Source of the DNA: Escherichia coli
GTDB lineage: Bacteria > Pseudomonadota > Gammaproteobacteria > Enterobacterales > Enterobacteriaceae
Reading direction: 5' to 3' (one strand)
Assembly (NCBI RefSeq): GCF_030013205.1
Contig: NZ_CP122648.1
DNA length: 64,000 nt
Positions 55,601 through 58,600 of the stretch are shown one piece after another (positions within the stretch are counted from its first letter, which is position 1; the number at the start of each line of letters is the position of its first letter). Position numbers: made by a program.

Positions 55601-58600
55601 CCTTCAAAACGCTGTGCCTGCACGAAGGGATTATCCCGGCGCTGGAGTCCTCCCACGCCCTGGCCCATGCGCTGAAAATGATGCACGAAAACCCGGAAAA
55701 AGAGCAGCTACTGGTGGTTAACCTTTCCGGTCGCGGCGATAAAGACATCTTCACCGTTCACGATATTTTGAAAGCACGAGGGGAAATCTGATGGAACGCT
55801 ACGAATCTCTGTTTGCCCAGTTGAAGGAGCGCAAAGAAGGCGCATTCGTTCCTTTCGTCACCCTCGGTGATCCGGGCATTGAGCAGTCGCTGAAAATTAT
55901 CGATGCGCTAATTGAAGCCGGTGCTGACGCGCTGGAGTTAGGCATCCCCTTCTCCGACCCACTGGCAGATGGCCCGACGATTCAAAACGCCACACTGCGT
56001 GCCTTTGCGGCAGGTGTGACCCCGGCGCAGTGCTTTGAGATGCTGGCACTCATTCGCCAGAAGCACCCGACCATTCCCATCGGCCTTTTGATGTATGCCA
56101 ACCTGGTGTTTAACAAAGGCATTGATGAGTTTTATGCCCAGTGCGAGAAAGTCGGCGTCGATTCGGTGCTAGTTGCCGATGTGCCAGTGGAAGAGTCCGC
56201 GCCCTTCCGCCAGGCCGCGTTGCGTCATAATGTCGCACCTATCTTTATTTGCCCGCCGAATGCCGACGATGATTTGCTGCGCCAGATAGCCTCCTACGGT
56301 CGTGGATACACCTATTTATTGTCACGTGCGGGCGTGACCGGCGCAGAAAACCGCGCCGCGTTACCCCTCAATCATCTGGTCACGAAGCTGAAAGAATACA
56401 ATGCTGCGCCTCCATTGCAGGGCTTTGGTATTTCCGCCCCGGATCAGGTAAAAGCAGCGATTGATGCAGGAGCTGCAGGCGCGATTTCAGGTTCAGCCAT
56501 TGTTAAAATCATCGAGCAACATATTAATGAGCCAGAGAAAATGCTGGCGGCACTGAAAGCTTTTGTACAACCGATGAAAGTGGCGACGCGTAGTTAATCC
56601 CCCAGCCGCCAGTTCCGCTGGCGGCATTTTAACTTTCTTTAACGAAGCCGGAAAAATCCTAAATTCATTTATTATTTATCTTTTTACCGTTTCGCTTACC
56701 CCTGTCGAACGTCAACTTACGTCATTTTTCCGCCCAACAGTAATATAATCAAACAAATTAATCCCGCAACATAACACCAGCAAAATCAATAATTTTCTCT
56801 AAGTCACTTATTCCTCAGGCAATTGTTAATACATCCAGAACGTTTCTCAAAATATATTTTTCCACTTTCTTCTCGTTACGCTTAATTTGACTAATTTTCA
56901 TTAGTGACTAATTTTAATGAGTGTCGACACACAACACTCATATTAATGAAACAATGCAACGCAACGGGAGAAATAACATGGCCGAACATCGTGGTGGTTC
57001 AGGAAATTTCGCCGAAGACCGTGAGAAGGCATCCGACGCAGGCCGTAAAGGCGGTCAGCATAGCGGCGGTAATTTTAAAAATGATCCGCAACGCGCATCT
57101 GAAGCGGGTAAAAAAGGCGGTCAACAAAGCGGTGGTAATAAATCAGGAAAATCCTGACTCACCGTTAATTATTAATATCAGATGATAAAGATAATTGCAT
57201 CTGCGGGCCGTATGGCTCGCAGTGATTTCACTGGAGAAAAATATGAATATGAAGACCATTGAAGATGTATTTATTCACCTGCTTTCAGATACCTACAGCG
57301 CAGAAAAACAATTAACCCGGGCACTGGCAAAACTCGCAAGAGCAACATCAAATGAAAAATTAAGTCAGGCTTTTCATGCGCACCTCGAGGAAACTCATGG
57401 ACAGATTGAACGTATTGATCAAGTTGTGGAATCCGAATCGAACCTGAAAATTAAGCGCATGAAATGTGTGGCAATGGAAGGTCTCATTGAAGAAGCTAAT
57501 GAGGTTATCGAAAGCACCGAGAAAAACGAAGTGCGTGATGCCGCACTGATTGCCGCAGCGCAGAAAGTCGAGCACTATGAGATCGCCAGTTACGGGACAT
57601 TAGCGACGCTGGCTGAACAATTAGGTTACCGTAAAGCAGCGAAGCTTCTGAAAGAAACTCTTGAAGAAGAAAAGGCCACCGACATCAAACTGACTGATCT
57701 GGCACTTAATAACGTAAATAAGAAAGCCGAAAATAAAGCCTGAAATATGAATTTTAACTTTTAGTCATTTTATAAAGAGGACATTTTCATGAATCGTATT
57801 GAACATTATCATGACTGGTTACGTGACGCCCACGCAATGGAAAAGCAAGCCGAATCTATGCTTGAATCCATGGCCAGTCGTATAGATAATTATCCTGAAC
57901 TACGCGCTCGTATTGAACAACATCTTAGTGAAACCAAAAACCAGATTGTTCAACTGGAAACTATTCTTGATCGTAATGACATTTCACGTTCAGTCATTAA
58001 AGATTCCATGAGTAAAATGGCTGCGCTTGGGCAGTCAATCGGTGGTATATTCCCTTCTGATGAAATAGTCAAAGGCTCTATTAGCGGATATGTCTTCGAG
58101 CAATTTGAAATCGCCTGTTACACCTCACTCTTAGCAGCAGCAAAAAATGCCGGTGATACAGCTTCAATTCCAACCATCGAAGCGATTTTAAATGAGGAAA
58201 AAGAAATGGCCGACTGGCTGATTCAGCATATTCCGCAAACAACTGAGAAATTTTTAATTCGCTCTGAAACTGATGGCGTAGAAGCGAAGAAATAATACCC
58301 TTTATACCATGTCCTTATTGACCCCGTATATTACGGGGTCGTTTTTGTGCGGAATTAAAAACGATATCCTGCTGAGAACATAAACACCCACGGATCGAGG
58401 CGTACGCTATCGTGTTGCTGTGCATCGCCCAGTTTATAATTGGCAGTGGTATCAATATCCATGTACCACACTGACATGTTTTAAAAAATGCAATAAGACA
58501 TTGTATCTGAAAGAAAAAAAGGATTTTGAGGCGCTTTTTTATACCGTTTTTCCGTGTTTTTAACTGCCTGATTTTATTGAAATCTTTTTTAGTTTTGCAG

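Follow-up and report, generated by a model that had tools for sequence, protein, structure and literature searches.

Upstream of the stress gene yciG, in a 64,000-nt stretch of Escherichia coli DNA (assembly GCF_030013205.1, contig NZ_CP122648.1; hereafter the window, within which all coordinates are given), a 54-bp block carries a tandem 11-mer TGACTAATTTT, a perfect 10-bp palindrome GTGTCGACAC and a dyad formed by ATGAGTGT and ACACTCAT. Do these repeats mark binding sites of transcription factors, as a preliminary description of the window had proposed, or do they belong to the promoter itself? Comparison with published start-site maps and with related genomes indicated that the block very probably comprises the core RpoS (sigma-S)-dependent promoter of yciG and the region around its start site. 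This promoter block is already known and characterised and is ordinary native regulatory DNA. The description was thus right in taking the block for native and conserved regulatory DNA of yciGFE, a stress-induced operon situated directly 3' of trpA. Its tandem factor sites, in contrast, turned out to coincide with the -35 and -10 elements, with a mapped transcription start just 3' of them.

Core elements and start site of the yciG promoter

The 11-mers, the palindrome and the dyad were all present where they had been described, and the block indeed lies 37 to 90 nt 5' of the yciG ATG. Two details of its geometry were amended. The dyad arms are 8 bp rather than 9 bp long, because the leading A is unpaired, and the palindrome and the dyad are not concentric: with centres at 56925.5 and 56929, the two symmetries overlap and have GTGT in common. 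The 11-mer copies, at 56888-56898 and 56905-56915 (period 17), overlie the two promoter boxes (Table 1). Copy 1 is made up of the final five bases of the -35 hexamer and six spacer bases, and copy 2 runs from -16 to -6, across the -10 element.

Promoters recognised by sigma-S are distinguished by -13C or TNGC and by an A/T-rich discriminator with T at -6 (Maciag et al. 2011, PMC3141248). At yciG, the C precedes TAATTT at -13, T-12, A-11 and T-7 are present, and the discriminator TAATGAGT (56915-56922) is A/T at six of its eight positions, including the T at -6. With these bases, AA after T-6, a good -35 box and a 16-bp spacer, the yciG promoter resembles generic sigma-S promoters; it differs from them in a start lying 9 nt after the hexamer (usually 7) and in a G/C-containing palindrome placed on +1. 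Weber et al. 2005 reportedly likewise characterise generic sigma-S promoters by -13C, a TA..T hexamer and an A/T-rich discriminator. An extended -10 with TG at -15/-14 was rejected, as the TG at 56905-56906 misses the required register by one position. RpoS dependence of yciG expression has been reported (PMC7161692, PMC5437024, PMC7705038), and the literature describes the gene as RpoS-dependent, silenced by H-NS and StpA and activated by McbR/YncC, with control by RpoS, H-NS and McbR stated in PMC7705038, PMC7161692 and PMC4223078.

The start site was placed by homology to sites mapped in K-12 and Salmonella. In Table S1 of Kim et al. 2012 (PMC3415461), the K-12 yciG start is at 1314114 of NC_000913.2, on the minus strand, with two reads and a 5' untranslated region (5'UTR) of 55 nt. 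The -50 to +1 sequence given there, TCGTTGCGCTTAATTTGACTAATTCTCATTAGCGACTAATTTTAATGAGTG, ends in TAATGAGTG, whose last G corresponds to window position 56923. For Salmonella SL1344, the SalCom yciG start site quoted in PMC7913699 is 1782355. We located the Salmonella RcsB box of that paper's table at -340 from the ATG in Salmonella contigs, which puts the SL1344 ATG at 1782410 and, therefore, the start site 55 nt 5' of it. The K-12 and SL1344 maps thus agree independently with the start position expected from the conserved boxes. Within the palindrome, G56923 is the third base; it follows the -10 hexamer by 9 nt, and the bases at -1 and +1 are a pyrimidine and a purine, respectively. Comparison with the K-12 promoter and the published maps, which the preliminary description had suggested, accordingly bore out the promoter: the boxes are identical to those of K-12, and the start is 55 nt before the ATG. 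In the Cappable-seq supplement, no entry was found at the predicted K-12 yciG start coordinates, and the available part of the Kim et al. 2012 supplement contained no Klebsiella yciG-like promoter string.

A simple mechanism would account for the block. RNA polymerase holoenzyme would touch TTGACT (56887-56892) and, 16 bp on, C-TAATTT-TAA (56908-56917). GACTAATT happens to be common to two segments, one made up of the -35 box and the bases 3' of it, the other of the -10 box and the bases 5' of it; two spacer single-nucleotide polymorphisms (SNPs) in the window's lineage would have lengthened this shared unit to 11 nt, and no separate repeat-binding factor would be required. Transcription would begin at G56923 within the palindrome, so that the dyad, at -6 to +19, would represent the discriminator and the initially transcribed region rather than an mRNA hairpin of yciG. 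That the 11-mer is perfect is a coincidence specific to this lineage, made by the two spacer SNPs, and the repeat itself presumably has no function. Repeat and dyad geometry read off raw sequence can therefore reflect no more than the two boxes and the start of a promoter that is already known, which matters mainly for annotation.

Table 1. Features of the yciG promoter region and their window coordinates
Feature	Position	Strand	Remarks
A/T palindrome AAAATATATTTT	56849..56860	.	about -74 to -63; candidate McbR/YncC or H-NS contact (conjectural), outside the 54-bp block
-35 hexamer TTGACT	56887..56892	+	last 5 nt open 11-mer copy 1 (56888-56898)
16-bp spacer	56893..56908	+	holds SNPs 56897 and 56905 (T here, C in K-12); C56908 is the sigma-S-typical -13C
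-10 hexamer TAATTT (56909-56914) followed by TAA	56909..56917	+	with C56908 reads CTAATTTTAA, a sigma-S-type extended -10
Dyad ATGAGTGT (56917-56924) / ACACTCAT (56934-56941)	56917..56941	.	8-bp arms, 9-nt gap; -6 to +19
Perfect 10-bp palindrome GTGTCGACAC	56921..56930	.	-2 to +8 relative to the start site
Transcription start site (+1, G)	56923	+	by homology to mapped K-12 and Salmonella sites; 5'UTR 55 nt
yciG 5'UTR	56923..56977	+	includes (GCAAC)2 microsatellite 56956-56965 and Shine-Dalgarno GGGAG 56966-56970
yciG coding sequence	56978..57157	+	59 aa, KGG-repeat general stress protein

Conservation in E. coli, Salmonella and other genera

The yciG loci of other Enterobacteriaceae were found via YciF, and the 230 nt 5' of each yciG were aligned. 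Two blocks were kept in every aligned genus, namely TTTGAC(T/G) and, 16 bp on, C-TA-NNN-T-TAA. The pattern TTGAC(T/G), 16-bp spacer and C-preceded TA...T occurred in 19 of 21 genera; the remaining two had TTGATC or TTGCGA at -35 with identical spacing, and C-TA...T-T(A)A was retained in all 21. Within E. coli, the -35 block, the -10 block and the -17 to +22 segment were nearly invariant among seven haplotypes, with TTGACT invariant in these and in Salmonella and 56924-56944 without any change in the seven. The variable sites 56896, 56897, 56903, 56904 and 56905 all fell within the spacer. Only one variable site was found in 56906-56944, versus 15 in the 40 nt of 56838-56877.

The window's promoter matches that of K-12 in the -35, the -10, the start-site region and the dyad, and those of K-12 and Salmonella in the offset of the start site. 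It differs from K-12 in being a rare allele with T rather than C at 56897 and 56905, which makes the 11-mer perfect; the K-12 copies read TGACTAATTcT and cGACTAATTTT and have GACTAATT as their shared unit. A 37-mer spanning both 11-mers (56884-56920) was exact in 23 of 4723 E. coli genomes (0.5%), with 4164 genomes in the 90-95% identity band (two to three differences). A swine and a human isolate are among the genomes with the exact allele. The dyad 37-mer (56914-56950) was exact in 3961 of 4722 genomes and carried one difference in 756. Conservation of the repeats across E. coli, by which the preliminary description was to be judged, thus came out divided: the perfect 11-mer is not kept, and the dyad is kept, yet it is broken in the O157:H7 lineage, where a G>A change at the equivalent of 56923 (+1) disrupts both palindrome and dyad (allele exact in 301 genomes).

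In Salmonella, the palindrome is identical and at an equal distance from the ATG, the sequence is unrelated from +9 on, and the right arm of the dyad is absent. Therefore, the palindrome, and not the outer dyad, is the ancestral unit. It belongs to the start-site region of Escherichia and Salmonella from their common ancestry, and if it has a role of its own, its position would point to an operator overlapping +1. Three kinds of natural allele could serve to probe the palindrome: G>A at +1 in O157, leaders with other (GCAAC)n lengths, and the yciG deletion of CFT073-type strains (the latter two are described below). Reportedly, pyciG is RpoS-dependent, H-NS-silenced and YncC/McbR-activated (Beraud et al. 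2010; Robbe-Saule et al. 2001), and the former study is said to contain YncC footprints.

Several observations count against the assignment of the block to the core promoter. A simple sigma-70 scan of the window did not call the yciG promoter, because TAATTT matches TATAAT at only three of six positions. The 9-nt spacing from hexamer to start is at the long end of the usual range, and the K-12 start is backed by just two reads. For the Salmonella row of PMC7913699, the column 'distance to TSS' (transcription start site) conflicts with the paper's own coordinates, and the coordinate was used here. Furthermore, that exactly GTGTCGACAC is found in E. coli and Salmonella, with unalignable sequence just 3' of it, suggests constraint beyond a core promoter.

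Rival readings of the repeats, palindrome and dyad

To gauge the symmetries against chance, the 380-bp intergenic region was dinucleotide-shuffled 2000 times. Of these shuffles, 8.7% gave an inverted repeat whose arms were at least 8 bp long, 42% gave a palindrome of at least 10 bp (mostly A/T-only), and 1.25% gave an 11-nt direct repeat within 40 nt. In the whole window, GTGTCGACAC occurs once, and a single further copy, at 33042, has one mismatch. The geometry by itself is only weakly non-random, and it is conservation that argues for function. That the perfect 11-mer is unusual by chance, and that GACTAAT stands in both boxes in E. coli and Salmonella, speaks for two TGACTAATTTT copies serving as tandem transcription-factor sites. 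We consider this reading highly improbable, as the perfect repeat is a rare allele, the 8-nt repeat that is its full extent in K-12 was obtained in 35% of the shuffles, and the bases after the -35 hexamer are not kept in other genera. Moreover, at 17 bp, or 1.6 helical turns, the period differs from that of known direct-repeat factor sites and sets the two copies on different helix faces, and the -35 and -10 boxes fully account for both copies. Direct repeats of the PhoB or OmpR type were rejected, since their period is 10-11 bp rather than 17 bp; likewise, neither the strain conservation nor the near-integer helical period of response-regulator tandem repeats was found (0.5% of genomes, 17 bp). 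The palindrome, possibly with the outer dyad, could instead be an operator over +1, bound by a dimeric regulator to repress or modulate yciGFE transcription. The best argument for such an operator is the sharp boundary between a palindrome kept at equal ATG distance in E. coli and Salmonella and a leader that is unalignable beyond +8; the scarcity of variable sites in 56906-56944 relative to 56838-56877 and the response of yciG to McbR, H-NS, RcsB, OmpR and PhoB fit it as well. Nevertheless, an operator is unlikely: the palindrome matched no known factor motif, it is absent from other genera, palindromes of 10 bp arise readily by chance in this region, and the O157:H7 lineage tolerates the G>A inside it. 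The GntR-family regulator McbR/YncC gave no support either, as no GTGTCGACAC-like site (at most two mismatches) was found 5' of its target mcbA or of mcbR, and its reported motif from chromatin immunoprecipitation (ChIP) is A/T-rich (ATATAT-type, mentioned in PMC13343897). The mcbA upstream region contains AAAAATATAT, and an A/T-rich McbR motif would suit the AAAATATATTTT palindrome better than GTGTCGACAC.

The dyad might also act as an RNA hairpin, either as a 5'-terminal stabiliser of the yciG mRNA or as a structure in transcripts reading through from trp or another upstream promoter. With both arms transcribed, it folds at -11 kcal/mol (z = -1.3), a covarying 7-bp leader hairpin is present in other genera (see below), and the upstream sequence is C-rich and G-poor as in the Rho-dependent trp t', which would bring read-through RNA here. 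However, with +1 at 56923 only GU of the left arm enters the yciG mRNA, and the leader, folded from a canonical +1 at 56921 and compared with shuffles, did no better than these (-5.8 kcal/mol, z = +0.5). Since the dyad lies at -6 to +19, most of its left arm falls outside the transcript, and no significant fold was found for the yciG mRNA; significance was reached only when that arm was added. The dyad is invariant in E. coli save for the O157 change that disrupts it, and the E. coli and Salmonella rows break the pairs of the hairpin of the other genera and do not fit its consensus. No U-tract follows the dyad and it had no Rfam match, with chance-level matches only at a permissive threshold. 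Such a hairpin is improbable, though somewhat less so than the tandem factor sites, and the core sigma-S promoter with its start site in the palindrome is preferred. An intrinsic terminator was rejected as well: the dyad is followed by ATATTAATG, and a terminator scan found only trp t in the region.

Two further sequence motifs lie in or near the block. Between the direct copies, ATTAGT is the reverse complement of ACTAAT, giving ACTAAT-tttc-ATTAGT-g-ACTAAT (56890-56912). This middle unit falls on the polymorphic spacer positions 56903-56905, is absent from Salmonella and is probably incidental. Farther upstream, CCGGAAAAATCCTA at 56648-56661 matches the RcsB box consensus TN(G/A)GAN4TC(T/C)NA at 13 of 14 positions and is placed about as the Salmonella RcsB box TAAGAAAACTCCTA (-340 from the yciG ATG). 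The osmotic-shock activator motif of a Reg-Seq preprint was considered for the 54-bp block and rejected; the motif scan of the preprint probably hit this RcsB-like box upstream of yciGFE instead.

Leader hairpin of other genera and the surrounding locus

Many genera, among them Klebsiella, Enterobacter, Lelliottia, Citrobacter, Leclercia, Kosakonia and Phytobacter, carry a stem of 7 bp 3' of the same promoter, at about +13 to +35. The loci concerned (L007-L022 and L030) carry it about 60-90 nt 5' of each yciG ATG, the start-site position being predicted there. The arms vary by genus, e.g. GATACG/CGTATC, CGACAC/GTGTCG and GACAT/ATGTC, and RNAalifold recovered the stem with compensatory changes at six of seven pairs. 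Paired cells amounted to 84.7%, versus 71% in shuffles, with none of 500 shuffles reaching the observed value, and a control with sliding partners gave 21-51%. This hairpin resembles the E. coli dyad in occupying the same leader, immediately 3' of the same promoter. It differs in being fully transcribed, whereas the dyad, placed about 10 nt farther to the 5' side, spans +1 and misfits the consensus pairs. The hairpin had no Rfam match, and no description of it was found in the accessible literature; it may merit attention. Kosakonia, Phytobacter and Salmonella each have a U-rich run behind a hairpin, a hint of attenuation or pausing. A combined reading, in which GTGTCGACAC is the operator of a dimeric yciGFE regulator and the leader hairpin of the other genera is an undescribed cis-regulatory RNA, replaced in Escherichia/Salmonella by an element acting at the DNA level, is speculative and even less likely than the operator taken by itself.

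On the + strand of the window, the genes follow each other as trpC, trpB, trpA (stop at 56597), yciG (ATG at 56978), yciF and yciE, and the order trpA-yciG-yciF-yciE is common to the window, K-12 and other E. coli. The intrinsic terminator trp t follows trpA at 56605-56625 in the terminator scan (region noted as 56605-56635). The stretch 3' of it, 56680-56800, is C-rich and G-poor (35 C and 10 G in 121 nt), which fits the Rho-dependent trp t' region; transcripts reading through from trp would therefore enter the yciG promoter. An in-frame GTG at 56921 would yield a 78-aa YciG. As the mapped start site lies downstream of this GTG, the promoter described here can make only the 59-aa protein, whose start is the sole one compatible with the mapped site.

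The locus varies among strains. No match to the trpA-yciG intergenic region was found in 691 of 5426 complete E. coli genomes, so that the yciGFE locus is absent or rearranged in about 13% of genomes; some of them, such as strain 600055, retain only the first 60 nt, with the trp terminator. CFT073-type strains (L002, CFT073 1840-1880; L087, SSGNw1) have a deletion of about 315 bp, equivalent to window positions of about 56957-57272, that takes out the yciG ribosome-binding site, the yciG coding sequence and the first yciF codons. As a result, yciF is joined to the promoter and dyad of yciG, both intact, and is annotated there by RefSeq with a non-canonical start. The (GCAAC)2 pentanucleotide repeat is length-variable, with four copies in strain 142 and one other contig, a 10-nt insertion just 5' of the Shine-Dalgarno sequence.

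Directly downstream of yciE, ompW (58355-58480, minus strand) is truncated by a prophage or prophage remnant, the region extending over 58296-64000. Its content includes, on the minus strand, stxB2e (62571-62834) and stxA2e (62847-63806), which encode Shiga toxin Stx2e, and a tRNA-Arg (63897-63973). The Stx2e-bearing stretch is 100% identical to chromosomes of porcine Shiga toxin-producing and enterotoxigenic E. coli (STEC/ETEC), e.g. O139:H1 P15-25 and K_EC180, and the window therefore comes from a strain of the swine edema-disease type.

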